NCBI RefSeq assembly: GCF_051903065.1
Contig: NZ_CP178438.1
DNA length: 64,000 bases
Source: Escherichia coli
GTDB lineage: Bacteria > Pseudomonadota > Gammaproteobacteria > Enterobacterales > Enterobacteriaceae
Reading direction: 5' to 3' (one strand)
In this document: positions 34,797 through 58,523 of the stretch, one piece after another
Numbering within the stretch: the first letter of the stretch is position 1
How the letters are laid out: every line of letters starts with the position of its first letter
Program-made: the position numbers and the translations under genes
The notes under the pieces: generated by a model
What the model was told of the DNA's origin: nothing
The model's database searches: none
Seen by the model: only the letters and a program-made list of their open reading frames with translations

Positions 34797-36023
34797 CTAG
34801 TTACCTTCATTGATATAGTTAACACCTTTATCAATTGCCTCCAATATATAATCAATCATACCATACACACCCTCAGTAAATGGATGATTATTTAGGAAAG
34901 TAAACATGTTATTCCCTAAAGACACATTATACATTAAATACAAAAAAGGCACTAAATTTACTACATATAAACAAATAAGTAGGGCATATTTACTCCTACC
35001 TTTTCTCTCAAAAGCTTTTAGATAAGGTAAAATAAAGTAGGGATAAAAACCAAAAATAATCATACCCAATCTATTCGAAAGTGCTGGGAAAGGTAATAAT
35101 ATTAAGAATAGAAAACACTCCTTACAAAATAAAATCTTATTAAAATCATCACATTTACTTCTCTTCCCTATCATTATAATAAAGCATATATTTACGACTG
35201 TAATGATAATATAATTTAACGGCAAACGTGTGAATTTATCGTTCCCAGAAACTGAAGTGAATTTCGATAATAGCACAGAATAAATTGGCGTATTATAAAC
35301 CACAAAAAACACAACTAAAAGTCCAATAAGAATAGAAAAAACAATTTTTGCATATGAGTATTTTTTTGAACCAAAGATCATATAAACTGCATATATAAAA
35401 ACATTAACAACTGCAGACATGTGAAAAAAAACACTCAATAAAAAAAAGATATATTTTTTAAATGAACGCTCATTTATAGCATACAGAAAAACAACCACAG
35501 ATAAAACCTGTCGAAGAAAATATGATGTAACTTCTATAAATCCTAAGTTAAAAAAGAAAAGCGATAATAAAAAAAGTTTATATTTTTTTTCAACATCTTT
35601 AAGAATCTTGGATAAAAAAAAGACGATCAGAAAATAAGTAGAAAGTAAAAATACTTCATCATTGCCATCTGAAATATACCCAATAAATTTCATGATGGCT
35701 AAAAACATAAATTCCAGCCCATCACCAAATCTTGAATAGCCAAAAACATCAATTAAATTATAATTTAACTCATGGTAAACATGAAGATACTCTGCAATAT
35801 CTCCAAATGGTTTTAGTGTGGAAAAAAAAATAATAATAAACACCAATAGTGCATAAAAATAAAAATTACGCAATACTGGGTGTAACAATGGCGAGAGGGC
35901 ACCAATAAATATCAATACAACAAGAGGGTAAAAGAATGTTGCCAATAATAACAAAGGAATAAAATATACAACACAGTTATTATTTGACAATGAATTTTCA
36001 TTGCTGTTTTTATAAATATTCAT
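34797..36023 (-). CDS. wzy: O-antigen polymerase (Wzy)
   Basis: 408-aa very hydrophobic Phe/Ile/Leu-rich protein with about 10-12 predicted TM segments, typical of Wzy; lowest-GC gene in the window. Confidence 0.68.
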   Translation of the reverse strand: MNIYKNSNENSLSNNNCVVYFIPLLLLATFFYPLVVLIFIGALSPLLHPVLRNFYFYALLVFIIIFFSTLKPFGDIAEYLHVYHELNYNLIDVFGYSRFGDGLEFMFLAIMKFIGYISDGNDEVFLLSTYFLIVFFLSKILKDVEKKYKLFLLSLFFFNLGFIEVTSYFLRQVLSVVVFLYAINERSFKKYIFFLLSVFFHMSAVVNVFIYAVYMIFGSKKYSYAKIVFSILIGLLVVFFVVYNTPIYSVLLSKFTSVSGNDKFTRLPLNYIIITVVNICFIIMIGKRSKCDDFNKILFCKECFLFLILLPFPALSNRLGMIIFGFYPYFILPYLKAFERKGRSKYALLICLYVVNLVPFLYLMYNVSLGNNMFTFLNNHPFTEGVYGMIDYILEAIDKGVNYINEGN

Positions 36024-36825
36024 ATCGGGAATATCCTTTTAGCAGAATAAATAATGCAGCTATTTTTTTAATTCTGCCGCATTTTTTTTTAAAAAGAAAT
36101 TTTTTCACCCAGAATATGAAGATATATAGTAACCCTAAATATCTACCACCACAGCGTACAAAAATAGCACTTCTATCAGATAGGGCATCTGTTTCATTAT
36201 AAATTTTTTTACCAGAACTTTCTATTGGATGCACAGTAATTGTGACAGGTATAAAAATAATATTATTTTTTGTTTTCATAAGATCCGTAACAAAAATCGG
36301 TTCTTCACCCGCTTTATATCTAGCCCCCAATCCGAAACACTCATCAAACCAAACATTACATTCCTGTATTTGATTCACATTAAGGCACATTTCTATTGAA
36401 GAAATGTTAAATGCTGACAATCTATTTAGCCTTTTCCTCATTAGCGGATATTTTTTCCTTAGTCTTCCGTCTTGCGTACAACTTTGAATTTGATAATGAT
36501 ACTTGCCTCTATCTTCGATTATTCTATCTTTTAGTTCATAAAGTCCATTAACAAGGTAAGCGACATCATCATCACTTATAATCATATAATCAACGCTTTT
36601 TTGAAATGCAGTAGCCAATAAAATGTTTCTGCTTTTACTTAACCCTTTACAGTATGTCGTTATTATTATTACATTGTTTTTCTTACAAATATCCCCATAT
36701 TGTTTTTGCTTATCAGTCACTTGATGTGAAATTATTATTAAAAATTCATCTGGTATATTTTTTATTTTTTCCCAAACCTGATTTATTCCATTATTTAATG
36801 TTGATATACCTATAGCTATTTTCAT
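36010..36825 (-). CDS. Putative glycosyltransferase (GT-A like), first gene of the O-antigen operon
   Basis: 271 aa, MKIAIGISTLNNGINQV... with ...MIISDDDVAY... Confidence 0.55.
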   Translation of the reverse strand: MKIAIGISTLNNGINQVWEKIKNIPDEFLIIISHQVTDKQKQYGDICKKNNVIIITTYCKGLSKSRNILLATAFQKSVDYMIISDDDVAYLVNGLYELKDRIIEDRGKYHYQIQSCTQDGRLRKKYPLMRKRLNRLSAFNISSIEMCLNVNQIQECNVWFDECFGLGARYKAGEEPIFVTDLMKTKNNIIFIPVTITVHPIESSGKKIYNETDALSDRSAIFVRCGGRYLGLLYIFIFWVKKFLFKKKCGRIKKIAALFILLKGYSRYEYL

Positions 36826-36854
36826 CTCGGTTATCTATTTTAGACCTATGAATA

Positions 36855-36895
36855 TAAATAACGCTACCGCCCCTGGCTTTACAGCTACCAGAGCA
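36855..36895 (-). promoter_or_regulatory. JUMPstart element with ops (RfaH-dependent antitermination) upstream of the O-antigen operon
   Basis: Plus-strand AACGCTACCGCC is the reverse complement of GGCGGTAGCGTT (ops core GGCGGTAG); surrounding CCCCTGGCTTTACAGCTACCA also occurs upstream of wza. Confidence 0.7.
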
Positions 36896-37156
36896 CTGCA
36901 TGCATGTCTACGATGTGACGAGCGTTACCCACTCGCGCTTAACTCGAAAAATTCAAACGCTAATTGTCTTACCAATCCGCTCTGGAAACAAGGAAAATCC
37001 TGGAAAACTTTGACTAAAATCCTATTGCTAACTCGTTGTTATTCTGATTGTTTATATAAAACAACGGCAGGAATATTCGCAACAAATTACTTTCGCCACG
37101 AATCCTCACTGCCGTTATAATTTTCTTATCAACCGTTACATCCGGTCAGATTTTCA

Positions 37157-39445: not shown

Positions 39446-40840
39446 CTACTCCCTCCGTTCCGGCAATCTAAAGTTAATCTTTTCCACATTAATAATATGG
39501 TGATTAACTCTGTCGATATCGACGGAGCTTTGCCCTTTTTCATTCACCGCATGAACATTTGCAAGAGATAGCAGTGTTTCTTTTTTCGCCATAAAGACGC
39601 CGCGAACGTCTTTGCGCATGTCAAAGTTCATGCTCAATGCGGGTCCAACAGAGGATTCCTGCATCACCTTGATATTACGCATAAAAAGATGTTGCGGTTT
39701 ATTGTGTAGCTCAAGCGACGCACGCTTCATCTCAATGTTAGTCAGTGCCACAAAGGAGACGGCATTCCCGGCGGAGATTTGGATGCCGCGCAATTTATAA
39801 GCAAGATGGGTGTTATCCAGTTGAATATTATTCACTCGGAAATTTTGCGGTATCGAGAGATATTTGCCTTTAATTACCCCATAGCCGATTAACATCCCGG
39901 CGCTATTAATCATTTCAATATTATCAATCACAAAATTGTCACAACCGTAAATAGCGACCGTCGCGTTATCAATACCTGCTTTCTTACTGAAATCCGGCGT
40001 GATATTGCGGGCTTTGATATTACGAATAACAAAATGTTTACCATTTTCAACATGGATCAACTGCCGACAATCCGATCCCGTGATATTCGCCACGACAAAG
40101 TTTTTCACTGCCTGATCTTCTGGGTAATTATTATCGTAAGTGCTTCCCGCAAGGCCTATGCCGATGCCCCAGTTGATTTTGCCGTTAGTACAGTTGATGC
40201 GCTCGATGACATGGTCGGAGATCAAAATATCACTGTCGTTAATTGCCACGTTCCATTCAATGGCGTCGCCCTGTAAGTCGCTGAACTTACAATTGGTGAT
40301 GTTGGCACCGATAATCTGGTTATGAAATCCCTGGCGTAAGATGGCGTAATTAGCGTGGCTAACGGTCAGGTTATCGATGGTCAGGTTGCGCATGACCCGT
40401 TTGTTTTTGCCGCCGATATAAATCTGCGTTACCGGACCAAAGCCGCTCATCGCCAGCCCTTTGATGGTGCAGTCAGAGCCACGCACATCCAGGGTGATGT
40501 TATGCATACTGCCGCCCTCCTCCCCTGTCACCTGGCTGCCGTCCTGTAAGACAAATCGCCCTCTGCCGTTGCCGCGCAGGCTTCCAAGGATGTGTAAAAT
40601 TTTACCGGGAGGGATAAAGATGCCGGTGTTGATATTGTCACAAACCAATCCGCCAGGCACGACGACCGTATGCCCTTCGCTGAAGGCTTGTTTAAATGAG
40701 GCGATCCAGTCGTGAGGGTTGTAGTCGTTAATGTTAACGCTTTGTCGGGCGGGAAGTGCGCGAGCAAAAGGGGTATGGAGGAAGGCAAGCGCGGAGCTTG
40801 CCGTCAGGAAGGTGCGTCGGGAGAGTTTTTTAAATGGCAT
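39446..40840 (-). CDS. wcaM: Colanic acid biosynthesis protein WcaM (Tat signal)
   Basis: 464 aa, [28 protein letters not shown]... Confidence 0.9.
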
Positions 40841-40850
40841 GCGTTCTCCT

Positions 40851-42071
40851 CTATAAAGCCTGCAGCAAGCTGGCGAGTTCTCGATTAATCACCTGCTGGT
40901 TAAAATCGTGTTCGACTTTTTCGCGCGCACGTTTGACAACCGGAGCCAGTTCGTCGGTGTCCAGTTGGCTAAACGCAGCCAGTCGTTGCGCCAGTGCGCG
41001 AGCATCGTTCTCAGGCACCAGCCAGCCGGATTTATCGGCCTCCACCAGTTCAGGAATTCCGCTATGCAGAGTTGAAACCACCGGAATACCGACCGCCATC
41101 GCTTCCATTAGCGCCACCGGAATACCTTCCATATCGCCATCCGCGCCCGTTACCGATGGCAACAGGAAGACATCCGCGTCGTCGAGCATCGCTTTCACTT
41201 CGTGGCTCGGTTTAAAGCCCGGCATCTCCACCACATCTTCCAGTTGATATTGTTCGATGAGGGTGCGCAGGCGTCGTTCCCACGGGCCAATGCCGAGGAT
41301 GCGATAGCGAAATGCCACGCCCTGCTCTTTCAACTGACGGCAGGCTTCGATCGCCACATGCAGGCCTTTTTTCTCGGTTAAGCGTGCGACGGAAATGATT
41401 TCCAGCGGCGTTGCAGGCGCTTTCACCGGACGCGGGCTAAAGCGCGTCATGTCCACGCCCATGCGCGATACGGCGATTTTTTCCCTCGGGCAGCCCATTT
41501 TTTGCAGCCTTCCGGCCCACAAATCGCTTATCGGTAACATCAGGTCGCCACGGCGGAACAGTTGTTGATATTCGGGAGTGTAGTGGTTGAGCACTTCCCG
41601 ACTGGAGATATCAATACCGTGGAAGATGGTGGCAATTTTGCCGCGAATGACACCCAGTTCGCGTAGTTTTGCTGCGGTTACCCCCGCAGGGCCAAAATGA
41701 GCGATAAAGACATCAGCATGAAATGGTGTTGCGACCTGACCGCAAATGGCAGACAAAATCAGGTTCCGCGACTCGGCACCATAGCGTTTGAGGTTGAACG
41801 CCTGCCAGGTATTTTTACGATGAATGCCACGTAACGTCTGGCTGGCGCGGTGGCGCAGTTTCGCCACTTTGCCCGTAGGTTCGTCCTGTAACCAGCGGGT
41901 TCTGGCGGCAAGGTTGTATTTCGTCCATGCCGCGTGGGTGTTCTGGGTGTCGCCTTTTTGCAGCGCGACAATCTCCACCTCAAAGCCCATATCAATAAAC
42001 GCGGTAATTTGATTGAGGACGAAGGTTTCCGACGACAACGGAAATTTCAGTAAAAAGAAGCCGACCTTCAT
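40851..42071 (-). CDS. wcaL: Colanic acid glycosyltransferase (GT4)
   Basis: 406 aa. Confidence 0.9.
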
Positions 42072-43348
42072 TTCACCTCCCCGATGCGTTCAAGCACAGA
42101 TTGCACCATCTGCATTCCTGTATAACGCTCACGACTGACAGCTTCATTAAGTCGTGCGTTCAGCGCCGGAAGTTGACCTAAGGTATCCGCAACCATCGCT
42201 TGCAGGCTACCGTCCAGTAAATGACGGATATCAATTGCCATCTCTGGCAGCCCCAGCTGCTGCATGATCCCGGCGGATTTATGTTCATAGTTGATGGCAA
42301 TCGCCGGAGTAGCAAAGTTCATTGAGATAATGGCTGAGTGCAGGCGCGTACCGACGGTGAGTTCACAGGCACCGAGAATTTTGCCCATTTCCAGATCGTT
42401 GAGTTCATCCATCACTACGTGGTAACGGGCAGGATCGCTGATGTGCTGGCGAAGATTGAGCGCCACCATGCGGTCGTCTTTGTTATAGCTGTCGATGCCC
42501 GTACAGGTGGAGAGCGCAATCACCTGATAGCCTTCGTCGAGAATGCGATTGACCACCCCGGCAAAGGCTTTTTCATACGCTTGTTGAGTGGTGCCGAGAC
42601 GTTTGTCGAACGGTGCCAGTTCGCGCAGGGTAATGGCCACCGTTTTCTGTTGTGCGGCAACGTCCAGCCAGTGTTGAACGGCATAGCTGGCAGTGAAGTC
42701 TTCGGTGTGGTGATCGACCAGCCACGCGGTATCGACGCCATGTTCCACTTTTGCGGTAGTGATATTGCTGCGTTTCATCAGATCAAGACTGACCGATTCG
42801 CGCAGGATCAGCGCGTCACAGTGACCAAAAACGTAGTTCGCCAGTTGGTTAAATTGCTCATCCTGGAAGGGACCGACGCTGTGACCAATCATAAACAGCG
42901 GCTTTTTCGCCATAAACGTGCAAAGCGCATGTTCAAACTGCGGCACGCCGTAGAGATCGACAAAAAACGATCCGCCGACCTGAATAATGGCGTCGTAACC
43001 TGACAGCAGGCGCACGAAGTCGGTGAATCCCTGGGCGATGGCGATATTACGCAGCTTGCCAGTGTCGGTGACGCGTGAGAGCAGTACCTGATGCTGGTAG
43101 CGGCGACGGAGGACTTTTTTAACGCGCCCGACAACGCCCGCCGCGCTGTTGTGTTGTTTCATTTGCAGGAACAGCGGATCGCCCATTACCGGGCGGTTGA
43201 GCAGCCAGGAAGAACTGACCGGATAGCGGCTCATCACGTCCACTTCGGCATGTGGATTGAGGATGTTGATGGCATCAAGTAAGCCGCGCAAGATGGCGCT
43301 GTCGCCACGATTGCCGCAAGTGTGGTTGCCCAGAATAAGTAATTTCAT
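42068..43348 (-). CDS. wcaK: Colanic acid pyruvyl transferase
   Basis: 426 aa, MKLLILGNHTCGNRGDSAIL... Confidence 0.9.
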   Translation of the reverse strand: MKLLILGNHTCGNRGDSAILRGLLDAINILNPHAEVDVMSRYPVSSSWLLNRPVMGDPLFLQMKQHNSAAGVVGRVKKVLRRRYQHQVLLSRVTDTGKLRNIAIAQGFTDFVRLLSGYDAIIQVGGSFFVDLYGVPQFEHALCTFMAKKPLFMIGHSVGPFQDEQFNQLANYVFGHCDALILRESVSLDLMKRSNITTAKVEHGVDTAWLVDHHTEDFTASYAVQHWLDVAAQQKTVAITLRELAPFDKRLGTTQQAYEKAFAGVVNRILDEGYQVIALSTCTGIDSYNKDDRMVALNLRQHISDPARYHVVMDELNDLEMGKILGACELTVGTRLHSAIISMNFATPAIAINYEHKSAGIMQQLGLPEMAIDIRHLLDGSLQAMVADTLGQLPALNARLNEAVSRERYTGMQMVQSVLERIGEVK

Positions 43349-43409
43349 TTTTTCCTCATAAATTTGATGCCAGGTGAGGCTGTGTTTGTTGTGTTCGTTG
43401 CCGTTTTTT

Positions 43410-43597
43410 GCCTGATGCGACGCTGGCGCGTCTTATCAGGCCTACAAGACCCGAGCACAGAACCGTAGGCCGGATAAGGCGTTCACGCCGCATCCGGCAT
43501 TCAGTGCCTGATGCGACGCTGACGCGTCTTATCAGGCCTACAGGTCCCGAGCACAGAACCGTAGGATGGATAAGGCGTTTTACGCTGCACCCGGCAA
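43410..43597. repeat. REP/BIME cluster (about 4 units) between wcaK and wzxC
   Basis: Repeated GCCTGATGCGACGCTGGCGCGTCTTATCAGGCCTACA... / ...GGATAAGGCGTTCACGCCGCATCCGGCA units. Confidence 0.8.
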
Positions 43598-43623
43598 CCG
43601 TTGTCGGAGCCTAAAACAACCAT

Positions 43624-45102
43624 TCACCCCGCCCGTAAAAGCATTTTCATTTTTTCGCTGCGACAAAACTGACGCTTCACTTCCACCACCAGCGGATGGC
43701 GCGACAGCACAATCATCACCACAAACGCCAGCACGCCCGCGGCTATTTGCACCGCCAGCAGCATCCCCAGCGCCAGTTGCCCTTTCAGCACAATGCCCAG
43801 CACATAACTGACCACCAGCGTCGGCAGCGAGAGATAAAACGGCAGCCACAAACTCAGGATGTACTGGCGATAACTGGAACCGAGCACCGGTTTAATCATC
43901 ACGAAATAGCTCAGAATGGTGTTGATAATCTGCACCAGCAGGAAGCCAAGCGTGACGCCGATTGCGCCAGCCATCTGCCCACCAATAACAATCGCCGGAA
44001 TAAACAGAAATGTTTTGAATACGTTGAATTTAAAGCTGATATCGACCCGCGCTTTCGCCATCAGCAGCGAACCAATCGGGTTACCCACTGAGCGCAGTAG
44101 CCCCACCACACACAGCAATTGCAGCACCGGAATAATGCTGTTCCACTTTTCGCCAAATACCAGCGGTACAAAGTTATTCGACACCACCATTAGCCCCAGC
44201 AGCGCCGGAAAGTTAATAATCCCCACCACCGAAAGCAGCTTGTAGAAGTTAATGCGCAGCTTTTCGGTATCGTCCTGAATTTTGGCAAACGCCGGAAACA
44301 ACACCCGGGTGATGATCGGGTTCAGCTTCATCGGCGGTACAACGGCCACGTTGTACGCCAGGTTGTATCCCCCTGCCACGCCCGCGCCGAGAATACGCGC
44401 CAGCACCAGCGTTGAAAGGTTGGTGTTGAGATAGTTGATGATGCTGTCCGCCGTCAGCCAGGCACCAAAGCGTAAGTTCGGTGCCACCGACGCCAGCGAG
44501 AAATGCAGACCGGGGCGATAAATTTTGCGGCCAAAGTAGCCAAACAGCAGCGTTCTCACCGCACTATTGACCAGATAACCGAGGATCGCGGTCATCGCCA
44601 GCGGCCAGAAATGGGCGCTAACCACCGTAAAAGTGAAGCCCGCCAGTACCGCGCTGGTTTCGATCATGCCGATTTTGTTGAACTCCAGCTCCTTTTGCAT
44701 CAACGCGCGGAACTGCTGCCCGTGGGGGATCACCACAAACGCCAGCGACAATGTTTTAATCAACGGTGCCAGGTCCGGGTTGTTCAGCACGTCACCAATG
44801 AGATCACTCAACAAAAACACCGCCACGCACACCACAAGCCCCAGCCCAACGTTCAGCCAGTACAGCGTGGTGAGTTCAAGGTGGCTGATTTCTTTTCGCT
44901 GAATAATCGAGTTAGCAATACCGAAGTCAGAAAGCGTATCTGCCAGCGCGATGATCACCAGCGACACGGTAAGCAAACCGAACTGGTGGTTGTCGATGAT
45001 CCGCGCCAGCACGGTCATCTGCACCAGCCCGAGACCGATGATGATCACCGTGGCAATCGCCGACCACTTCGCGCCGCTGATGGTTTTTTCACGTAAGCTC
45101 AT
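43624..45102 (-). CDS. wzxC: Colanic acid repeat-unit flippase
   Basis: 492-aa polytopic MOP-family protein. Confidence 0.9.
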   Translation of the reverse strand: MSLREKTISGAKWSAIATVIIIGLGLVQMTVLARIIDNHQFGLLTVSLVIIALADTLSDFGIANSIIQRKEISHLELTTLYWLNVGLGLVVCVAVFLLSDLIGDVLNNPDLAPLIKTLSLAFVVIPHGQQFRALMQKELEFNKIGMIETSAVLAGFTFTVVSAHFWPLAMTAILGYLVNSAVRTLLFGYFGRKIYRPGLHFSLASVAPNLRFGAWLTADSIINYLNTNLSTLVLARILGAGVAGGYNLAYNVAVVPPMKLNPIITRVLFPAFAKIQDDTEKLRINFYKLLSVVGIINFPALLGLMVVSNNFVPLVFGEKWNSIIPVLQLLCVVGLLRSVGNPIGSLLMAKARVDISFKFNVFKTFLFIPAIVIGGQMAGAIGVTLGFLLVQIINTILSYFVMIKPVLGSSYRQYILSLWLPFYLSLPTLVVSYVLGIVLKGQLALGMLLAVQIAAGVLAFVVMIVLSRHPLVVEVKRQFCRSEKMKMLLRAG

Positions 45103-45103
45103 A

Positions 45104-46498
45104 TCAATATGCCGCTTTGTTAACGAAACCTTTGAACACCGTCAGGAAAACGATTTTGATATCGAACCAGACGCTCCATTCGCGGATGTACTCAAGGTCG
45201 AACTCGACGCGTTTTTCCATTTTCTCCAGCGTGTCGGTTTCGCCACGCCAGCCGTTAATCTGCGCCCAGCCGGTAATGCCCGGTTTCACTTTATGGCGCA
45301 GCATGTAGCCTTCAATGAGCTGGCGATACTGTTCGTTATGCGCCACCGCGTGCGGACGCGGGCCAACAATCGACATCCCCCCGGTCAGCACATTGATAAA
45401 CTGCGGCAATTCATCCAGCGAGGTGCGGCGCAGAAAGTTCCCCACTTTGGTGACGCGCGGATCGTTCTGCGTCGCCTGAGTCACCACTTTGTCGTTCTCC
45501 ATCACTTTCATGGAACGGAACTTCCACACTTTGATCGGCTTGCCATCCATGCCGTAGCGAGTCTGGCGGAAAATAACCGGCCCAGGTGAACTGAGTTTCA
45601 CCGCCAGCGCAATGCAGCACAGCACCGGGGAGATCAGCAGCAGGATAAGCGTCGCCAGCACAATGTCTTCCGCACGTTTTAGCAAGCGGTTAACCCCGGA
45701 AAGTGGCGTGTCATACAGCGGCACCACCGGAACGCCGTTCATCTCTTCGAGACGTGAATGGAGAATGTTGAAGGTAAAGACGTCGGGGATCAGCAGCACC
45801 GAACAGGTAGTGTCCGCCAATTGATGGACCAGTTTTTTCACTCGCGCGCCGTCGCACATTTGCATCGCGATATAGACGTTATGAATCTTGCCTGCTTTAG
45901 CATCCTCGACCAGCTGTTGCAGGTTACCCGCCCAGTCGTTAGAAACGCCGCCCGGTTTCGGGTCGTGGTAAACGCCCACCACTTCAAACCCTAACCACGG
46001 CTGGTTACGGAAGCTCTCCATCAGCATTTGCCCGGCGGCTAAATCCCCCGCCACCGCGACCATGCGCTTGTTATAGCCATGATTACGCAGCCAGCCCGCC
46101 CCAATGCGAATACACGAACGGCAAACCACCAGTCCGATGCTGGTCAGCCCATACCACGCCAGCCAGATTTTCAGTTGCGTGTCGAAATCATTGTTGAACG
46201 CCACCAGTCCGGCGCTGAAAATCACGCTTAAGGTCCAGTTTTGTAGCAGCAGGGCAAATTCTGTCGCTGCCCGAACACCGCGCCATGAGCGATAAAAATC
46301 GGTGATGCCGCCCAGCATCTGGAACACCACCAGCGTAATCAGCGCCACCAACAGGTGCATGTAGAGGAATGACAGTCCGCTCACTTCGCAAACCAGCCAT
46401 AGTCCGGCAAACATGATGGTGATATCTGAAAAGCGTTGCACCATAGAGATTAACGATGCATTGGTTTTCGCTCGCTCGCGCTTTTTTAGATTTGTCAT
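45104..46498 (-). CDS. wcaJ: UDP-glucose:undecaprenyl-phosphate glucose-1-phosphate transferase
   Basis: 464 aa, N-terminal TM region plus C-terminal sugar-transferase domain. Confidence 0.9.
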   Translation of the reverse strand: MTNLKKRERAKTNASLISMVQRFSDITIMFAGLWLVCEVSGLSFLYMHLLVALITLVVFQMLGGITDFYRSWRGVRAATEFALLLQNWTLSVIFSAGLVAFNNDFDTQLKIWLAWYGLTSIGLVVCRSCIRIGAGWLRNHGYNKRMVAVAGDLAAGQMLMESFRNQPWLGFEVVGVYHDPKPGGVSNDWAGNLQQLVEDAKAGKIHNVYIAMQMCDGARVKKLVHQLADTTCSVLLIPDVFTFNILHSRLEEMNGVPVVPLYDTPLSGVNRLLKRAEDIVLATLILLLISPVLCCIALAVKLSSPGPVIFRQTRYGMDGKPIKVWKFRSMKVMENDKVVTQATQNDPRVTKVGNFLRRTSLDELPQFINVLTGGMSIVGPRPHAVAHNEQYRQLIEGYMLRHKVKPGITGWAQINGWRGETDTLEKMEKRVEFDLEYIREWSVWFDIKIVFLTVFKGFVNKAAY

Positions 46499-46552
46499 CG
46501 TTGTTCCTGTTATTAGCCCCTTACCCGCAATGGGGTAAGGGAAGATCCGACA

Positions 46553-47923
46553 TTACTCGTTCAGCAACGCCAGCAGAGTTCGCGTTCGCGCTTCCATCAG
46601 CGGCACATCACCGCGTGATTCCACATTCAACCGCACCACCGGTTCGGTGTTGGAGGAGCGCAGGTTAAAGCGCCAGTCGGCAAAGGTCATGCTGATGCCA
46701 TCGGTGCGATCCACCGCCAGCGCCTCACGGCTAAAATGCTGTTCCACGCGGTTAATCGCCTCAACGGGTTGCGCCAGTTTGCTGTTGATCTCACCGCTTG
46801 CCGGAAACGCAGCCATCCGGTCGCGTACCAGTTCGCCCAGCGTTTTCTCTTTCAGGCATACCAGTTCGGCTACCAGCAACCACGGGATCATGCCGCTGTC
46901 GCAGTAAGCGAAATCACGGAAGTAATGGTGGGCGCTCATTTCGCCACCGTAGATGGCGTCTTCCTTGCGCATCCGTTCTTTAATAAAGGCGTGTCCGGTT
47001 TTCGACATTACCGGGGTGCCACCTGCGGCAGTCACCACATCAACGGTGTTCCAGGAGAGACGTGGATCGTGGATGATCTTCGCGCCGGGATTTTTTTCGA
47101 GGAATGCTTCTGCCAGCAGGCCGACAATGTAATAGCCCTCGATAAACTGCCCTTTTTCGTCAAACAGGAAACAGCGGTCAAAATCGCCATCAAAGGCAAT
47201 GCCCATATCCGCGCCGTGTTTGATGACCGCATTGCGGGTGTCGTCGCGGCATTCCGGCAGTAGCGGGTTAGGAATACCGTTGGGGAAATTGCCGTCCGGC
47301 GTGTTGTGTACTTTGATTAATTCCACCGGTGCGCCGAGGGCTTTAAATCGGGCTTCGATGGCGTCCACCACCGGCCCCGCTGCGCCGTTCCCGGAGTTGA
47401 TCACCAGCTTGAGCGGCGTGAGGTTTTTGACATTGATATAACCGAACAGGTGATCAACGTAAGCGTCACGCAGGTTGATTTGCTGATAGCGACCGCGTTT
47501 GGTTTCATCGACGGGAGGAAAGTCGTTGGCTTCAGCCAGGCGCTGGACATCGCGCAGTCCGGTATCACCGCTGATCGGGCGAGCCCCTTCGCGCACCAGT
47601 TTCATGCCGTTATAATCCATCGGGTTATGGCTGGCGGTAACTTCGATGCCGCCATCCACGCCGAGATGGAACGTGGCGAAATAAATCTCTTCGGTGCCGG
47701 ACATGCCAATATCCAGCACATCGACGCCCGCATCCTGTAAACCTTTCGCCAGCGCCAGTTTTAAGGTTTCGCTGGTGAGGCGGACATCGCCGCCTAAAAC
47801 AATGGTTTTCGGTTTAAGAAATTCGCCATAGGCGCGACCAATACGCCAGGCAATATCTTCATTCAGTTCTTCGCCTAATTTCCCGCGAATATCATAGGCT
47901 TTAAAGCAAGTTAATTTTTTCAT
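46553..47923 (-). CDS. cpsG: Phosphomannomutase
   Basis: Internal ATG gives [29 protein letters not shown]...; phosphohexomutase motifs. Confidence 0.9.
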
Positions 47924-48012
47924 GTCGTTACCCTTTTTCAGGCAATAGTTGGCCCTGACCGAAGCGGCCAATTTTGTTTTTGTCGTTATTTACACCGCGG
48001 TTTCGCATTCAT

Positions 48013-48115
<103 letters not shown>

Positions 48116-49552
48116 TTACACCCGTCCGTAGCGATCCGCGAAGCGCACCACATCATCCTCTTCGAGATAAGAGCCGGAGCGCACTTCAATTAAATCGAGC
48201 GGAATTTTCCCCGGGTTTTCCAGGCAGTGCGTCGCCCCCAGCGGTATATAAATGGACTCGTTTTCACCAAGCAGTTTGATATCACCGTCAATGGTGACTT
48301 TTGCCGTTCCCGCGACAACCACCCAGTGTTCCGCGCGGTGATGGTGCATCTGTACCGACAAGCCTTCGCCCGGTTTCACGGTGATGCGTTTCACCTGGTA
48401 GCGGTCGCCCGCGTCGATAGAGTCATATTTGCCCCACGGGCGATAGACTTCGCGATGTACCCGATGCTCATGGCGACCATCGGCTTTGATCTGCTCGACC
48501 ACTTTTTTCACATCCTGCACCGCGTTACGGTCGGCAATCAGCACCGCATCTTTGGTCTGCACCACTACCAGATCTTTCACCCCGACGGTGGTTACGAGGC
48601 CAGATTCGGCATACACATAGCTGTTTTCAGTTTTGTGATTAATCACATCGCCATGGCAAACGTTGCCCTCGGCGGTGTGGGCACTGATCTCCCATAAAGA
48701 GGACCAGGAACCGACATCGCTCCAGCCCGCATCCATCGGCACCACAACGGCATCTGCCGTACGTTCCATGACCGCGTAATCCACCGACTCTTCCGGGCAG
48801 GCCAGAAACGCTTCTTCATCCACGCGAATAAAATCGAGATCCGGATCGACGGCGCTCATCGCTTTTTCACAGGCATCGAGAATATCCGGGCGATATTTTT
48901 TCAGTTCTTCGAGATAGCGTCCGGCGCGGAACAGGAACATACCGCTGTTCCAGTAATATTCGCCGCTTGCCACATAGGCCTGAGCGGTTTCCAGATTCGG
49001 TTTTTCGACAAACTGCGCCACTTCAAAGGCCACCGTATCCTGCTCACCCGCCGACACTTCACCGCGACGAATATAGCCATAACCGGTTTCTGGTAGATCC
49101 GGCACGATGCCAAAGGTCACCAGCTTGCCCGCTTCGGCATACGGCATGGCATTACGCACGGCGGCACGGAACGCGTCTTCATCGGCAATCACATGATCCG
49201 CCGCCAATACCAGCATTAACGGGTCGCTCTCCGGGCTATGACGTTTTGCCGCCAGCGCCGCCAACGCAATGGCAGGTGCTGTGTTACGCCCTGCAGGTTC
49301 GAGAATAATGTTCTCGGTGAGTTTGTTCAGTTGACGCAGCTGTTCCGCGACAATAAAGCGGTGCTGCTCATTGCAAATCACCACAGGGCTTTCGCACTCC
49401 ACGCCGTTCAGGCGGCAGATGGTGGTTTGCAGCATGGTGAGATCGCCTTTCAGGCATAAAAACTGCTTGGGATAAAGTACGCGGGAAAGCGGCCATAAGC
49501 GGCTACCGGAGCCACCTGCCATCACAACTGGATAGAGTTTCGACTGCGCCAT
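48116..49552 (-). CDS. cpsB: Mannose-1-phosphate guanylyltransferase
   Basis: 478 aa, [24 protein letters not shown]... Confidence 0.92.
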
Positions 49553-49554
49553 AA

Positions 49555-50778
49555 TTATCCCCGAATATCATTTATAAATTGACGTAACACGTTCTCTTTA
49601 TCGAGCGTGCGTTCGGCATATTCACGTGCCACCGTGTTGTGTTTGGGCAGCAGGAGCGCCTGACGAATCCCCGCCACCAGCGCCTCAACCGATTCCGGTT
49701 CTACGCAAACCGCAATGCCCGGAAAGGTTTCGCAAAGCTGCCCCAGTTCTGTGTGGGCTTCTGCGGTAATCACCGCGTTACCGCCTACTGCCAGAATATT
49801 GGTCAGTTTCGACGGCAATACGGCATCTGCCGCGCCGCGTTTTTGCACCACCAGATGGCAATCGCCCATCTTCAGCAGTGCGGGTAAAGCGTCATACGAT
49901 TGCAGCGGGAAAAATTGCATGTTGTGCAGTCCACGCTGCTGCGCCATTTTTTCCAGCCGCGCTTTGCCGCCGCCCTGCCCGACAATGGCAAAAATCAGCG
50001 GTTCATCACGCAGGCGTTCGGCAGCTTCAATAACGTTTTCCAGCCCCTGCTTTTCACCAATATTGCCGGAGTAAAGAATGATTTTTTTGTTATCCGGCAG
50101 GCCAAGCTGGTTACGAAGAGCATCAACATCGGCGTCTGCAACATGCTGAAAACGGGCGATTTCCGACCAGTTGGGGAAGAAGATGACGTTTTCCGCCGCC
50201 ACGCCTTTTTCGATGGCTTTATTCATCATCGAACGCGAAATCGTGGAGACGTTATCGACGTTATGCAATCCGCTACGCTCAAACGCTGTTGCCAGCTGTG
50301 CCACTTTGCCGCCTTTGCCTTTTCCGGCAAGGCCCAGCCCCAGCATGGCGTCCACTTCGTAATCCTGAATATGCAGCACGGTACGCGCACCAGAGAGTTT
50401 CGCCAGCAGGCGCATTCCCGGCGTGCAAAACAGCGTTGGCACCACGCCGATAATACGATCCGGCTTCCAGCGACGTTGCGCCATCAACGGGAAAAAACTG
50501 CTGACGGCAAAACTGCCGAGATGCAACAGGCGTTTCAGGGTGCTCGGCTGTTTTGGCACATACAGCGGGCAGCGCCACACCGTGGCGGCCCCCTCTTCTC
50601 GTTTGTAGCGCCAGGCGGAATAGTTCTCGCCCACCTGCCACTGCGGGTAGTAAGGCGGTGCGGTAATGACCCGCACCTCATGACCTTGTGCCGCCAGCCA
50701 TTCCACCATCTCGCCGGTGTACTTGCCGATGCCGGTTAACTCCGGCGAGTAGTTAATGCCGTAGACCAGTATTTTCAT
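49555..50778 (-). CDS. wcaI: Colanic acid glycosyltransferase (GT4)
   Basis: 407 aa, [20 protein letters not shown]... Confidence 0.9.
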
Positions 50779-51257
50779 AATCCGGGTACTCCGGCACGCT
50801 TCTCAGCGAGAAAATAGGCGCGGCTGTTAGCGTGAACATTGTCACTGGCGAGCAGTGCGTCCGGCGTCAGCCAGCGGTAATCGTCATGCTGTTCATCCGG
50901 CAGTAACAGCTCTTCTTCAGCGACTCTGAAGCAAAAACCGAGCACCACATAGTGAGTGGTGAAATCCGTGCCAGAGAAGTTATCGTCATAAAAGTGCTGC
51001 CAGACACCGTAAAACTGGCCTGCTGTTATCGGCAGACGCAGCCCCAGTTCCGCCATCGTCAGCCGCTCAAATGCGGCCTCCAGCGTTTCGTCTTTCTGCA
51101 CGCGCCCTCCCGGCACAAACCAGTAACCCTGCGCCGGGCGGTTGGTTCTTTTGCCAAGCAGAAACTCGCCGCGACTGTTCTCAACAATAAAGTCGAGAGA
51201 GACAAGCGGGGTGGAGCGCACTACCGTGGCAAAGTCTTCCTGACGTAAAAACATCAT
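50775..51257 (-). CDS. gmm: GDP-mannose mannosyl hydrolase (Nudix)
   Basis: 160 aa; ATGA overlap with wcaI. Confidence 0.9.
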
Positions 51258-52222
51258 TACCCCCGAAAGCGGTCTTGATTCTCAAGGAACCACTGGTAAG
51301 TGCTGGCAAGCCCCGCTTCCAGTGAGATTTCGTGATACCAGCCAAGCTGATGCAGGCGCGTCACATCCAGCAGTTTGCGCGGCGTACCATCCGGTTTACT
51401 GGCATCAAAAACCACCCGACCTTTGTAACCCACCACTTTGGCGATGGTTTGCGCCAGCTCGCGGATAGTGCAGTCAATGCCCGTACCGACGTTAATGTGC
51501 GACAGCATCGGCTGGGTGTTCTCCAGCCAGACTTCGTGCGCCAGCTCCATCACGTGAATGCTTGCCGCCGCCATATCATCGACATGCAGAAATTCGCGCA
51601 TCGGTGTACCGCTGCCCCACACCACCACGTCCGGTGCATTCTGTGCCGTCGCCTCGTGGAAGCGACGCAGCAATGCAGGGATCACATGCGAATTACTCGG
51701 GTGGAAGTTGTCATGCGGGCCATACAGGTTGGTCGGCATGACTGAGCGGTAATCGCGTCCATACTGGCGGTTGTAAGATTCGCACAGTTTGATCCCGGCG
51801 ATTTTGGCAATGGCGTAAGGCTCGTTGGTCGGCTCCAGCGTGCCCTGCAATAATTCGCTTTCTGCCATCGGCTGTTTTGCCAGTTTCGGGTAGATGCAGG
51901 ACGATCCAAGAAACAGCAGTTTGTTCACGTCGTTCTGATGCGCGGCGTGAATGATGTTGCTCTCAATCATCATGTTCTGGTAGATGAAATCCGCCGGGTA
52001 GGTGTTGTTGGCAACAATGCCGCCCACTTTCGCCGCCGCCAGATAGACCTGGTCAATGCTTTCGCTGGCAAAGAAATCATGCACGGCGCGGCTGTCCAGC
52101 AGGTTAAGCTCGTCGCGGGTGCGTAATACCAGTTCCACATCACCGCGCTGTTCGAGCTGCCGCCTGATGGCGGAACCGACCATCCCGCGATGGCCAGCAA
52201 TAAAAATGCGTTGTCTACTCAT
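51257..52222 (-). CDS. fcl: GDP-L-fucose synthase
   Basis: 321 aa, [21 protein letters not shown]... Confidence 0.92.
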
Positions 52223-52224
52223 GC

Positions 52225-53346
52225 TTATGACTCCAGCGCGATCGCCACGTCGTAGCCGTGAGATTTCAGCAGAGAGTGTTTTTTCGCCGCTTCGAGGTCA
52301 TTAGCCACCATTTCAGACACCATCTCTCTGAGGGTGATTTCCGGTTTCCAGCCCAGTTTTTCGTGCGCTTTGGTCGGGTCGCCGAGCAGCGTTTCAACTT
52401 CTGCCGGACGGAAGTAACGCGGGTCAACGGCGATAATCACATCACCCGGTTTAACGCCCGGCGCGTCATGTCCGGTGACGGAAACCACAATGCCCTTCTC
52501 TTCAACACCCGTGCCTTCAAAGCGCAGTTTGATGCCCAGCTGTGCTGCCGCCATTTCTACGAACTGACGTACGGAGTACTGAACGCCGGTCGCGATAACG
52601 AAATCTTCTGGCTGTTCCTGTTGCAGCATCATCCACTGCATTTTTACGTAGTCTTTGGCATGGCCCCAGTCACGCAGGGAATCCATATTGCCGAGGTACA
52701 GGCACGACTCCAGCCCCTGGGCGATGTTGGCGATTGCGCGGGTGATTTTGCGGGTAACGAAGGTTTCGCCGCGGCGCGGGGATTCATGGTTGAAGAGAAT
52801 ACCGTTACAGGCATACATGCCGTAGGATTCACGGTAGTTGACGGTGATCCAGTAGGCATACAGTTTGGCGACCGCATACGGAGAGCGCGGATAGAACGGC
52901 GTGGTCTCTTTCTGCGGAATTTCCTGCACCAGACCATACAGTTCAGAGGTGGAAGCCTGATAGAAACGGGTTTTCTTTTCCAGACCGAGGAAGCGGATCG
53001 CCTCCAGCAGGCGCAGCGTACCCATCGCGTCGACGTCAGCGGTATATTCCGGTGACTCAAAAGAAACCGCAACGTGGCTCATTGCGCCCAGGTTGTACAC
53101 TTCATCCGGCTGTACTTCACGCAAAATGCGCGTCAGGTTGGAGGTATCACTCAGGTCGCCATAATGCAGATGGAATTTCGGGTTGCAGGTGTGCGGATCC
53201 TGATAAATGTGATCCACGCGCTCGGTGTTGAATGACGATGCGCGACGCTTAATACCATGCACCTCGTAACCTTTTTCCAGCAGAAACTCTGCCAGGTAAG
53301 AACCGTCTTGTCCGGTTACACCGGTGATGAGAGCGACTTTTGACAT
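52225..53346 (-). CDS. gmd: GDP-mannose 4,6-dehydratase
   Basis: 373 aa, [35 protein letters not shown]... Confidence 0.95.
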
Positions 53347-53373
53347 GTCTTATTCCTCTGTATTTTTTTGAAT

Positions 53374-53922
53374 TTATTCAGTTTCAACGCGTTTGCGTAT
53401 CACCACTGCGGGATTCCCCCGGCAAACCACATTTGCCGGAAGCGATTTAAAAACACTGCTTCGTGCACCCACGACGGTGCCGTCGCCAATCGTGACGCCT
53501 GGGGCAACAAAAACATCGGTTGCCAGCCAGCATTTCTCGCCAATCACAATAGGCGTGGCGTTAATGGTGAAATGTTGACTTGCATGGTCGTGGCTCCCGG
53601 TGCATAAATAACTTTTTTGCGATATCACCGAATGTGCGCCAATGGTTATTTCACCGAGGGTATATAAATTGACGTCATCGCCGACCCACGCGTAATCACC
53701 TAAGGTTAATTTCCACGGATAGGTAATTTTTACTGACGGACGAATAACTACGTTTTTTCCTATTTTTGCGCCGAATAAACGTAATAAAAATGTCCGCCAG
53801 CGATACAATACTTGTGGCGACCAGGCAAATAATGTTGCCTGTACTGCCCACCACAATTGCACTTTAATAGCGTTGCCGCCCCGGAACCCTTTCGGCACCG
53901 AGAACCCACTTAAATCCTGCAT
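53374..53922 (-). CDS. wcaF: Colanic acid acetyltransferase (hexapeptide repeat)
   Basis: 182 aa. Confidence 0.9.
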   Translation of the reverse strand: MQDLSGFSVPKGFRGGNAIKVQLWWAVQATLFAWSPQVLYRWRTFLLRLFGAKIGKNVVIRPSVKITYPWKLTLGDYAWVGDDVNLYTLGEITIGAHSVISQKSYLCTGSHDHASQHFTINATPIVIGEKCWLATDVFVAPGVTIGDGTVVGARSSVFKSLPANVVCRGNPAVVIRKRVETE

Positions 53923-53937
53923 CGTTTTTCCTTATAT

Positions 53938-54684
53938 TTAGCTTTTGTTATATAAGGCTTTCGTCTTTGAGGTAGTACGCTGGCGTAAATGCCAGGATAG
54001 TTCTGCCCAGAAGCCAGGCACATGTAATATTTGCCGTTGGACTTTTTTGGCGTCAGCACACAATTCCATATTATTGGTGGTTGATACCCCACCCATAGAA
54101 AATTCAGACACCAGACCATTGAGTTTTTTAAATGCATAACCGGCTTTATACATTTTGGCTGCCAGCGCGTAATCAGAAGAAACTTTATATTCCAGGTCAT
54201 AACGCCATTTTTTCAAACCGGATACCGGGAAAAATATCGCCTGATGACTGGCGGGCAGGCTGTGATAAATATACCAACCCGGTTTGGCGCTACGTTTAAT
54301 TTTATGCCCGTCGCCAAAATCCAGCAGCGCATCGCCGGTGATCATCATGTTATCTTTTTGCATTTTTAACTTACGGACAAAATTTGCGGCATCCTGATGA
54401 AAAATATCGCCCGAGTTGAGAAACAACGCGAACTTGCCTTGTGCCATCGCAATGCCCTTGTTCATGGCGTCGTAGATACCGTTATCTGGCTCGCTGACAA
54501 AGCGTAGGTTATAGATACCATTGAGATTTTCCAGGTACTCACGGGTGCCGTCATTGGAACCGCCATCGACAACAATCCATTCGAAGCTGATATCGTCCGC
54601 CTGCGCCAGATGCGCCAGCGAGGCGTGTGTTTTGACTATCCCTTCGAGGTTACGAAACGCGACAGTGATTATGCTAAGCAACAT
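53938..54684 (-). CDS. wcaE: Colanic acid glycosyltransferase (GT2)
   Basis: 248 aa, [23 protein letters not shown]... Confidence 0.9.
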
Positions 54685-54694
54685 GTTCTTATTC

Positions 54695-55912
54695 TTACCT
54701 CGTAATATTTAACGCTTTTCGCAAAATAAACGGACAGACGATTAAAAATGCATATTCCGGGCTAAATATCGAACCGGTAAAAAACAGCGATACCGGAGTA
54801 AAAAGATATAATTGCACGCGAAAATTGCGGTTATCACCAAAAGCGTTGATCATCATTTTTATCACTTTCCCCATGTACCACAGCGATAAAAACACCGCGA
54901 ACCAGGAAAAATAAATAATCAGCAGATACAAACCATTGTCTATGGTTTTTCCGATATCCGCACCGTTAAATATTCCGAATGATGCGACATATTCATAAAG
55001 TGAGCCAAATCTGACTACACCGTCAATATGGGTCAAAGAATAACCGACCATCACCAGCGGACCGACAATACGATAATACGATGACGATCCTTCCGTACCT
55101 AAATCGCCCAGACGGGTGGAAATATAAGGAAACGCGATTACCACACCAACCAGGAATACAGCCAGAGAAATCAATGCTAACGGTAACTTTTTCTTAATCG
55201 CCTCTTTATTCAGATATTGAAATGCCCACTCCAGCAAATAAAACAGGATAAAGGTCATAACCCCTGAAAACGATCCGGATAATATTATCCCTGCGAGAAT
55301 CATAGCATCTGTTTTAGGCGTTTTGATACCAAACTGTTTGATGCTGAGCCAAATTGAGATTAATGCCAGAGCGAAAAATGCCGGTTCGAAATAAAGTGCT
55401 GTCGTGCGCTTGCCGCCGAATTTAATGAAATTCAGCACATAGCTGTTGCTGTAAATCAGATATTTCGAAATCGACTCCATAATACTGCTGCCACCGGTGA
55501 GGATAATTTGCGCCATCTCCACCGCCGCCAGCGCCACCACCAGCCCGACCACCAGATAAAAGAAACGTAATATCTTGCGATGGTTGTGTGGCGAAATTGT
55601 TTTAAAACGAATACTCCACACCATGCCAATAATGATCACAATATAGACAAACAGCATGGTTGAAGTGACGTATTTACTGGCATCCAGCGACTGACCAAAC
55701 AGATAGTTAAACGCCGTGAGTCCCGCACCAATCCCTAAGGCAATCATCAATTTTTTAACGCTGATGCGTTCTAAAAACAGCAGTAACAAGACAGGTAAAA
55801 AAGTGACGATAGTGATGGGGAAACTTTCACCAAGCTGGGCGATTTTGACGTTAACCAGCAGGTAGATCAGCGGCAGCAGCAGGTAGCTACAGATTCTGAT
55901 AGAAGTTGACAT
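54695..55912 (-). CDS. wcaD: Colanic acid polymerase
   Basis: Internal ATG gives [22 protein letters not shown]...; the track ORF extends 24 codons further into wcaC. Confidence 0.85.
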
Positions 55913-57104
55913 ACTCCTCCAGCATCTGTTGTCCACTGTAGGCGGCGCGGCTGCGCTGGCTGAACTCAGCCAGCGTGGTACCAAATATCGCCTGCGCGAT
56001 TTCCGGTTTGCTTAACTGGACCAGTTGCAGCACGTCTTCTTCGCTGACGGTTTTACCGCCGGATTTTTGCAACACTTCACGCGCCGCGTCGCTATGGGTG
56101 GCAATCACCGGCACGCCAATTGATAACGCCTCACACAAAATCAGCGGGTAGTTATCGACACGAGAACTGAACACCAGCGCATCCATCTGATTGAGCGCGC
56201 TCATCAGCTTACGTTTGTCGGTTTCAAAGCCGTGATTGACCACGTTGCCAGCGGTGAACGGCGAGAACTTACCGAAGGTATGCAGTTCGATTTTGTCGTC
56301 CAGCGCCATCATCTCGCGCACCAGTTGCTGGTTAGTTTTGCCGTCGTAACGCAGGTCATGCGCTACCACCGCGATTTTCGGCTTGCCCTGAGTTTCGCGC
56401 ACCGGAGGCAGATCCGCCAGAATCGCTTCGGTTGCCATATCAATACCGTTATTGATAATCCGGCAACGCCCTGGACCGTACAGGCTATTGAAAGCGTCAG
56501 CCACATGCTGGCTGGGGGAAATAAACTGACAGCCCAGCGCCAGCATCTCAAGGAATAACTGGCGTTTGCCCGCCACCAGTTGGTGTGCGCGATCAATCTT
56601 CACCGGCGGATAATTATTTAAGGTCGGGCATTTCTGGCAGCCCGTTTTCCAGCCTTCACAACCGTCAGTAAAGGCGCAGCGCCCGGTAACGCTCCAGTGG
56701 TCGTGCAGCGTCCAGACCAGAGTGACATCCGGTTTGTGGTTTTTCACCTTTTCGCAAAAGCGCACCACGCTCTTAAGATTCAACCAGTAGCTGTGCAGCA
56801 CATGAAAATGCAGGACCACCGGACCCGGTGTGCGAGTAATGGTGCGATATAACTCATTGAAATTGCCGAACAGATCGCGATTAAACAGACGAAACAGGGC
56901 AATGTTCGCCATCGCAGTCATCCGCGGCGTATGTTTGATGACCTGCGGATAGTTTTGATGGCTGACGCTCTCTTTGCCGCCTTTGCCGTAGCCGTAGACA
57001 AAATGTGACGCCAGCCCCTGTTGCAGCGCACGCTGGTGGAGATCTAACGCCACACCTGCTGCCCCGCCTTCCGCCAGTCGCACATTAAATTGCAAAATAT
57101 TCAT
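55887..57104 (-). CDS. wcaC: Colanic acid glycosyltransferase (GT4)
   Basis: 405 aa, MNILQFNVRLAEGGAAGVALDLHQRAL... Confidence 0.9.
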   Translation of the reverse strand: MNILQFNVRLAEGGAAGVALDLHQRALQQGLASHFVYGYGKGGKESVSHQNYPQVIKHTPRMTAMANIALFRLFNRDLFGNFNELYRTITRTPGPVVLHFHVLHSYWLNLKSVVRFCEKVKNHKPDVTLVWTLHDHWSVTGRCAFTDGCEGWKTGCQKCPTLNNYPPVKIDRAHQLVAGKRQLFLEMLALGCQFISPSQHVADAFNSLYGPGRCRIINNGIDMATEAILADLPPVRETQGKPKIAVVAHDLRYDGKTNQQLVREMMALDDKIELHTFGKFSPFTAGNVVNHGFETDKRKLMSALNQMDALVFSSRVDNYPLILCEALSIGVPVIATHSDAAREVLQKSGGKTVSEEDVLQLVQLSKPEIAQAIFGTTLAEFSQRSRAAYSGQQMLEEYVNFYQNL

Positions 57105-57589
57105 TTGATTACCTTCACTCGCGCTTTTTCTCCCACCACCAGCGCGTTGTCCGGGACAGAATCGAGCACCACGCTGCCCGCGCCCACGGTGACGTTGTTA
57201 CCAAGCGTGATATCACCAAGAATAATGACGTTGGCACCGAGTTCGACGCCGTTGCCAATGTGTGGACATGCCATGTTATCGGCACCACGATTGCCGATAG
57301 TGACGCCGTGGCGAATGGTAAAATCATCCCCCGCTACCACGTTTTTATTGATCACTACGGCGTAACCGTGATGGATAGTAAAGCGGCGGCCAATGGTCGC
57401 GGCAGCCTGGATTTCATAACCGAAAAAGCATTCGGTGATAATGCGATACAGCACCAGCAGCGGGGCCGCCCACAGATTGTTGAGAACGTTCTTTTTGCGC
57501 CACACCGAACAAAAATGAGCGACGCGATAGGCAAGAACCATGCAGCACGGGCGTAAACTCCAGCTGTTGGCGCGTAGATCTTCCAGCAT
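57101..57589 (-). CDS. wcaB: Colanic acid acetyltransferase (hexapeptide repeat)
   Basis: 162 aa; ATGA overlap with wcaC. Confidence 0.9.
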   Translation of the reverse strand: MLEDLRANSWSLRPCCMVLAYRVAHFCSVWRKKNVLNNLWAAPLLVLYRIITECFFGYEIQAAATIGRRFTIHHGYAVVINKNVVAGDDFTIRHGVTIGNRGADNMACPHIGNGVELGANVIILGDITLGNNVTVGAGSVVLDSVPDNALVVGEKARVKVIK

Positions 57590-57591
57590 AT

Positions 57592-58431
57592 TTAGCGCCC
57601 CCGAATACCATCAGCCAGACGTTTGCCGTTACGCACCGACAGCAGCGTCAGCAAAGTGCGCCAGGTCATGCGTTTATTGCGGATCTGGTAGAGGGTAAAC
57701 AGCTGATATTTTTTGCTGGCGCGGTCAAATTTGTCTTTGTGCTTGCGGTAAAAGTGGAAGTATCCGGAGAATTTTTTCGGTGACGAGGTGATCTGCATTT
57801 CACCGTGATTGATATGCAGGATCTGCGTCGCCTCTTCCACTTTCCACGGTTCGCCATACTCCACCACCATCCGCAGGAAGATGTCGTAATCCTGTGCCGC
57901 TTTCAGTTCGGTATCGAACAAACACTCTTTGAAACGCCATGCCCAGGTAAAGACCTGATTGCCAATGATATTGCGTTTATAGAACAGGCGGCGTGAGTAC
58001 GGCGATTTGGGATACAGTGGTAAGCTTGCCGGTTGGGAATAAACTTCTCCCTGGCATACGTAGTCGTTAGCGTACAAAAAGGCGTGAGTGACCAGTTGCT
58101 GTTTATGGGCGAGGAAGACGCTCAGACGGTTGGGTGTCCATTCATCATCATCATCGATCCCGGTGATGTATTCCCCTTGCGCCAGCATAATCGCCTGGTT
58201 ACGTACCGCGCAAGCCCCGCTGTTAATGTCGTTGTGAATGTAGGTAATACGCGGATCGTTGAGGGCGGTGACGTACTGTTGCAGTTGTTCCCAGGAGGTG
58301 GAGCAATCATCCACGATGATCATCTCCCAGTTGCTGTAGTCCTGGCGCATGACCGATTTTATCGCCCGAATCGCCAGTTGTTGGCGGTTCCAGGTCGGCA
58401 TATAGATTGAGATCAGCGGATTGTCTTTCAT
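57592..58431 (-). CDS. wcaA: Colanic acid glycosyltransferase (GT2)
   Basis: 279 aa, ...ISIYMPTWNRQQLAIRAIKSVMRQDYSNWEMIIVDDCST... Confidence 0.9.
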   Translation of the reverse strand: MKDNPLISIYMPTWNRQQLAIRAIKSVMRQDYSNWEMIIVDDCSTSWEQLQQYVTALNDPRITYIHNDINSGACAVRNQAIMLAQGEYITGIDDDDEWTPNRLSVFLAHKQQLVTHAFLYANDYVCQGEVYSQPASLPLYPKSPYSRRLFYKRNIIGNQVFTWAWRFKECLFDTELKAAQDYDIFLRMVVEYGEPWKVEEATQILHINHGEMQITSSPKKFSGYFHFYRKHKDKFDRASKKYQLFTLYQIRNKRMTWRTLLTLLSVRNGKRLADGIRGR

Positions 58432-58465
58432 AGGTTGTTCTCCCGGCTTATGAGCTGGTTTGCTT

Positions 58466-58520
58466 GCCGGATGCGGCGTGAACGCCTTATCCGGCCTACG
58501 GGGCGGTGCGAATGCAGGCG
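58466..58520. repeat. REP element between wzc and wcaA
   Basis: GCCGGATGCGGCGTGAACGCCTTATCCGGCCTACG. Confidence 0.7.
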
Positions 58521-58523
58521 TCG

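Follow-up and report, generated by a model that had tools for sequence, protein, structure and literature searches.

Gene layout of the window

We analysed a 64,000-nucleotide stretch of the E. coli chromosome (the window), in which the his operon, the O38 O-antigen cluster, galF, the colanic acid cluster and yegH follow one another. The 2.5 kb stretch used for the searches (35800-38300) was 100% identical to E. coli 23CRST027 (NZ_AP045789.1), a record that agrees with the window from end to end in both coordinates and annotation, and the same stretch was found at 99% identity or more in 11 other genomes. The his operon is encoded on the plus strand. The O38 O-antigen operon lies on the minus strand between 36825 and 30170, where the list of open reading frames, the RefSeq annotation and a scan of GC content together delimit seven genes in the order hypothetical gene, wzy, wzx, family-2 glycosyltransferase, family-32 glycosyltransferase, galE and a second family-2 glycosyltransferase. 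The gnd, ugd and wzzB genes, also on the minus strand, come after the O38 cluster. In the preliminary description the first gene of the O-antigen operon had been placed at 36825; the ATG at this position is the start both of the open reading frame and of the RefSeq CDS, and the CDS is the first of the seven O38 genes. It spans 36010..36825 (minus strand) and encodes a hypothetical protein of 271 aa (WP_032216225.1), for which a comparison with the Pfam glycosyltransferase-2 family, PF00535, gave a weak match (E = 0.0033) that is below the curated cut-off.

Upstream of the O38 operon, an intergenic region that is conserved from galF to the JUMPstart element (36899..37156, minus strand) presumably carries the O-antigen promoter. 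It is preceded by galF (38050->37157, minus strand, from the annotation) and by a gene for a gnu-type GlcNAc-PP-undecaprenol 4-epimerase (38293-39288, minus strand), which sits between wcaM and galF. The colanic acid operon, wza-wzb-wzc-wcaA...wcaM, is made up of 20 genes and occupies ~22.8 kb on the minus strand (39446..62277). Two Rfam families other than JUMPstart were matched in this region. The algC RNA motif (RF02929, 77.3 bits) was located in the cpsB-cpsG intergenic region, directly before the start of cpsG (47928-47977, minus strand), and naRNA4, a REP-type nucleoid-associated RNA (79.7 bits), was located between wcaK and wzxC (43468-43538, plus strand), a position inside the colanic acid operon. 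Elsewhere in the window, two tRNA-Asn genes with equal Rfam scores were found on either side of cbl-nac (1452-1527 and 3861-3936, plus strand), an STnc240 sRNA match was found upstream of plaP/yoeI (16412-16486, minus strand), and the his operon leader was present at 18784-18907 (plus strand).

Two JUMPstart elements in the leaders of the polysaccharide operons

The preliminary description had pointed to a segment shared between positions 36855-36895 and 62455-62490. The plus-strand strings concerned were found inside both ranges, CGCTACCGCCCCTGGCTTTacAGCTACCA at 36862-36890 and CGCTACCGCCCCTGGCTTTttAGCTACCA at 62457-62485. The Rfam JUMPstart model, RF01707 (gathering score 35), matched exactly two sites in the window, both on the minus strand. 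One is in the O-antigen leader (36860..36898), with a score of 58.8 bits over model positions 1-38 of 38, and the other is in the wza, or colanic acid, leader (62455..62493), with a score of 57.3 bits over the full model. Read on the minus strand, the O-antigen copy is CAGTGCTCTGGTAGCTGTAAAGCCAGGGGCGGTAGCGTT (36898->36860) and the wza copy is CAGTGTATTGGTAGCTAAAAAGCCAGGGGCGGTAGCGTG (62493->62455). Alignment of the two 39-mers bore out their claimed likeness, with 33/39 identical bases and an exact 20-mer in common, and revealed no similarity between their flanks beyond the 39 bases.

The JUMPstart sequence was reportedly described by Hobbs and Reeves in 1994. The comparison was made with the Rfam consensus, CAGCGcAcUGGuAGCUG.UAAgCCAgGGGCGGUAGCGUG, instead of the printed 39-bp one, and both copies, at 39 nt each, fit CAGcGcAcUGGuAGCUG-UAAgCCAgGGGCGGUAGCGUG over the full length of the model. 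The last base is T in the O38 copy and G in the RF01707 consensus; we found nothing substantive that sets the two copies apart from the known element. Like the known JUMPstart, both are situated just upstream of polysaccharide clusters on the sense strand; they fall between annotated CDSs, in the untranslated leaders of the two long operons. In each copy the final 12 bases constitute the ops element, and GGCGGTAGCGT is present on the sense strand in both leaders. The two segments are known JUMPstart/ops signals, and their presence at both loci was already known. The result is confirmation of a textbook regulatory signal at the expected places, and it helps the annotation by establishing the strand, where the O38 operon has its 5' end and where the serogroup-specific DNA stops.

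It is hardly credible that the two sites resemble each other by chance or through low complexity and have no function. A degenerate 38-mer built from both copies and searched with up to 3 mismatches had 2 matches in the window compared to 0 in 100 shuffles, the Rfam E-values for the whole window were 6e-11 and 2e-10, and conservation of the two copies extends over thousands of genomes. A second alternative is that the shared 39-mer acts mainly as an RNA element, whose hairpin affects stability, processing or translation, and not as a DNA signal. The Rfam model does include a 5-bp stem, CUGGU...GCCAG, which can be drawn in both copies, and the only difference within it, where the wza copy has U in place of C, still allows a G-U pair. 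However, the folding energies of the 39-mers were no better than those of shuffled sequences (z = -0.2 and 0.0), the minimum-energy fold of the wza copy was without the Rfam stem, and two sequences alone permit no covariation test for the stem. Moreover, the best-conserved part of the element is its unpaired 3' half, which corresponds to the ops DNA signal for which a complex with RfaH has been solved. We therefore consider a predominantly RNA-level role improbable and treat the two elements as JUMPstart sequences with ops DNA signals at their 3' ends.

The O-antigen leader and the edge of the serogroup-specific DNA

The O-antigen leader matched 3714 of 5426 complete E. coli genomes, 2660 of these at 95% identity or more, and the stretch from galF to ops was 95-99% identical in most of the matching E. 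coli. The JUMPstart copy was identical in 12 O38 genomes, including NCTC9038, which we take to be the O38 serotyping reference strain. Among 60 matching genomes sampled evenly, most alignment rows ended at query position 300, equivalent to position 36861 of the window, and a longer query broke at the same base, which is the 11th base of ops. The GC content falls at the ops edge, galF having ~49% and the O38 genes 27-34%; DNA of the latter composition is of the kind coated by H-NS. Because similarity stops at 36861 and GC drops there, the JUMPstart marks the galF-side edge of both the serogroup-specific DNA and the transcription unit.

The cluster boundary that had been proposed on the galF side is therefore upheld, with the caveat of the gnu-type gene at 38293-39288, beyond galF. 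This gene was present here and in 3 other loci that were fetched, and it was missing between wcaM and galF in all five named rfbB-led loci (K-12, O103, O18, O25b and O7). Some content tied to certain O-antigen cluster types is thus located past galF. Since gnu is upstream of galF, and only in some cluster types, the JUMPstart does not bound every O-antigen-related gene.

On the other side of the edge, the end of ops is separated from the ATG at 36825 by 34 nt. This spacer (36826..36859, minus strand) is AT-rich and serogroup-specific and has no clear Shine-Dalgarno sequence. We compared this arrangement with the galF-rfbB leader of E. coli K-12, where the JUMPstart occupies the same position after galF and the 38 bases up to T11 of ops are identical. 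In K-12 and other rfbB-led clusters position 12 is G and the start codon comes ~75 nt after ops, whereas O38 has T12 and 34 nt, and its first gene is AT-rich and unrelated. A scan of the O-antigen leader against the sigma-70 consensus yielded only a weak, chance-level site (minus strand 37179-37150, 9/12 match). Across both leaders, scans for sigma-70 promoters and terminators likewise returned only weak sites at chance level.

The wza leader

Of 5426 complete E. coli genomes, 4824 contain the wza leader (62278-62700), almost always with at least 95% identity, and the leader in the window was 97.4% identical to that of K-12 over 423 nt. This degree of conservation indicates that the element in the window is the same as the one known from the promoter region of K-12 cps; the JUMPstart of the K-12 cps/wza leader is one that Stout is said to have reported in 1996. 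Comparison with the K-12 cps/wza leader and with the cryptic RfaH locus wza-wcaM of CFT073 showed the same locus, and no difference was found. The distance from the end of the wza ops to the wza ATG at 62277 is 177 nt. Usually silent, the wza operon requires activation by Rcs, and the action of RfaH on it is conditional on Rcs-activated initiation. A search for the RcsAB box with the consensus TAAGAATATTCCTA, allowing up to 3 mismatches, found none in the wza leader; the five matches in the window were at the level expected by chance. RefSeq also annotates a hypothetical protein of 49 aa on the plus strand of the wza-yegH intergenic region (62585-62734), opposite the presumed wza promoter region. 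This reading frame has no overlap with the JUMPstart.

Probable recognition of the ops elements by RfaH

The ops core GGCGGTAG is located on the minus strand at 36864-36871 and 62459-62466. This is the non-template (sense) strand of both downstream operons, and the position of the core on the coding strand is in keeping with the preliminary description. The ops element is reportedly that of RfaH-dependent operons such as rfb, rfaQ/waaQ, hly, kps and tra, as set out by Bailey et al. in 1997. When compared with the ops of these operons, both copies have the core and T11 on the non-template strand of the 5' leader. The full 12-mer of the wza copy (62455..62466, minus strand), identified by the core search and read from the sequence, is the canonical GGCGGTAGCGTG. 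The 12-mer of the O38 copy (36860..36871, minus strand) is GGCGGTAGCGTT, in which G1 is at 36871, T6 at 36866, T11 at 36861 and T12 at 36860; relative to validated ops elements, the canonical G12 is replaced by T.

In the solved complex, the non-template ops strand read by RfaH forms a small hairpin that is closed by a C3:G8 pair and has a loop of G4-A7 (Zuber et al. 2018, PMC5995543). T6 is flipped into a pocket of RfaH and G5 is packed against the protein, RfaH recruitment needs G4, G5, A7 and G8, and polymerase pauses at ops at C9 and U11 (PMC5995543). The RfaH-contacting and hairpin bases, C3-G8, together with the pause base T11, are intact in both copies in the window. When we folded the ops 12-mers as DNA, the energies were near those of shuffles, and the pairing of the predicted mini-hairpin differed from that in the published crystal structure. 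The rfaH gene itself is outside the window; K-12 rfaH matched 5425 of 5426 complete E. coli genomes, a set to which the 23CRST027 genome, identical over the searched 2.5 kb, also belongs.

ChIP data from CFT073 bear on both loci. In the wild-type strain, RfaH was detected downstream of the ops in the O-antigen leader (Hustmyer et al. 2022, PMC9765446), and it was detected on wza-wcaM after the promoter had been relieved of H-NS/StpA silencing (PMC9765446). RfaH was kept on the polymerase across whole transcription units (PMC9765446). For RfaH control of colanic acid, the same paper refers to Navasa et al. 2014 (cited in PMC9765446). Since both elements carry every RfaH-contacting base, RfaH-dependent processive transcription is by far the best explanation, and the two elements are very probably JUMPstart sequences with ops 3' ends that make the transcription of both operons RfaH-dependent. 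The earlier proposal of RfaH-dependent antitermination of both operons gains support from the full-length signals, the CFT073 ChIP data (PMC9765446) and the near-universal occurrence of rfaH, which together suggest that it applies here.

RfaH loading and its consequences at the two loci can be outlined by analogy with the published orthologous leaders. Polymerase would initiate at a promoter that precedes each element and would then enter the untranslated leader. With ops in the transcription bubble, the non-template strand, which is the minus strand of the window, would be exposed and would fold into the hairpin with G5 and a flipped-out T6, while the polymerase would pause around C9/U11. RfaH would then bind both the exposed ops DNA and the polymerase, exclude NusG and travel with the polymerase. 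Pausing, Rho-dependent termination and H-NS silencing would be suppressed along the O38 operon (36825->30170), and the same suppression would be expected along the 22.8-kb colanic acid operon (62277->39446). RfaH would probably also aid the recruitment of ribosomes at the first O38 gene, which is poorly equipped with a Shine-Dalgarno sequence.

A variant base at position 12 of the O38 ops

Positions 11-12 of ops are TG in the wza copy and TT in the O38 copy. T11-G12 is a pause-inducing dinucleotide common to all validated E. coli targets (PMC5995543), and it is missing from the O38 copy only. We examined how frequently this variant occurs. The eight other serogroup loci that were fetched first (K-12, O103, O18, O25b, O7, ET729, EC-TO75 and E5) all read ...GCGTG. 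When matches to the 39-mer were ranked by coverage, T12 was found in at least 37 of the 2387 genomes with a GTAAAGCC-type JUMPstart, and it was found in 7 of the 1593 genomes matching a GTTAAGCC-type query, among the matches listed. Counted among the matches listed in the BLAST ranking, T12 occurs in ~1-2% of E. coli genomes and in several serogroups. Twelve of the at least 37 genomes are O38 genomes, and T12 was present in all 12. Six loci that were fetched later also have T12, among them O93, wecB-first, IS1-disrupted and galE-first clusters, the last of which reads GGCGGTAGCATT. The sequence downstream was unrelated among the fetched T12 loci. Position 12 therefore falls where conserved DNA gives way to variable DNA, and it occasionally varies.

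The loss of G12 raises the alternative that the O38 ops is weakened or non-functional, that the operon relies little on RfaH and that the motif is kept only as a recombination edge. With T12 the consensus pause loses its +1 G, no compensating YG comes next (GCGTTATTTATATTC), TG is found at positions 11-12 in all validated E. coli targets, and homology between serogroups stops exactly at ops position 11. However, positions 1-11 of the O38 ops are intact, including every RfaH-contacting base. In addition, a substitution at this position has been characterised: G12C abolished the U11 pause in vitro but kept RfaH recruitment (PMC5995543), and in vivo, as read from the source data, the RfaH effect with G12C was ~20-fold compared to ~40-fold for the wild type (PMC5995543), which is still large. 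T12 is furthermore fixed in 12/12 O38 genomes, NCTC9038 among them, and it is present in O93 and at least 3 other cluster types, and O-antigen-producing strains therefore tolerate it. A loss of function of the O38 ops is therefore unlikely. By analogy with G12C, the O38 ops is predicted to still recruit RfaH, and because G12 is missing it is predicted to pause less at U11. The element would work and may be somewhat less efficient.

The absence of the G12 pause base from a small minority of natural O-antigen leaders, including that of O38, is the only new detail in this analysis. As position 12 is at the junction, it might be rewritten when clusters are exchanged, and serogroups might then differ in RfaH drive if G12T lowers pausing or loading; we put this forward as a tentative idea that is possible but rather doubtful. 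If it were true, there would be natural differences between serogroups in the strength of RfaH on O-antigen expression. The T12 leaders offer a ready-made natural test of the contribution of the ops pause to RfaH loading in vivo.

Other copies of the ops core in the window

GGCGGTAG occurs five times in the window compared to 1.28 expected. The three copies outside the two leaders are all without the upstream JUMPstart half, and each was rejected as an ops. The first, at 10171-10178 (minus strand), is intragenic on the sense strand of sbmC and reads GGCGGTAGCTCG, with no T11. The second, at 60986, is intragenic and antisense in wzb, and the third, at 63046, is intragenic and antisense in yegH. 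In the published CFT073 ChIP data, no RfaH was found at any ops-like site within coding regions (PMC9765446), which suggests that intragenic sites of the sbmC type do not load RfaH. The copy antisense to yegH overlaps a terminator-like hairpin followed by a T-run (63046-63062, minus strand), an overlap that is probably fortuitous.
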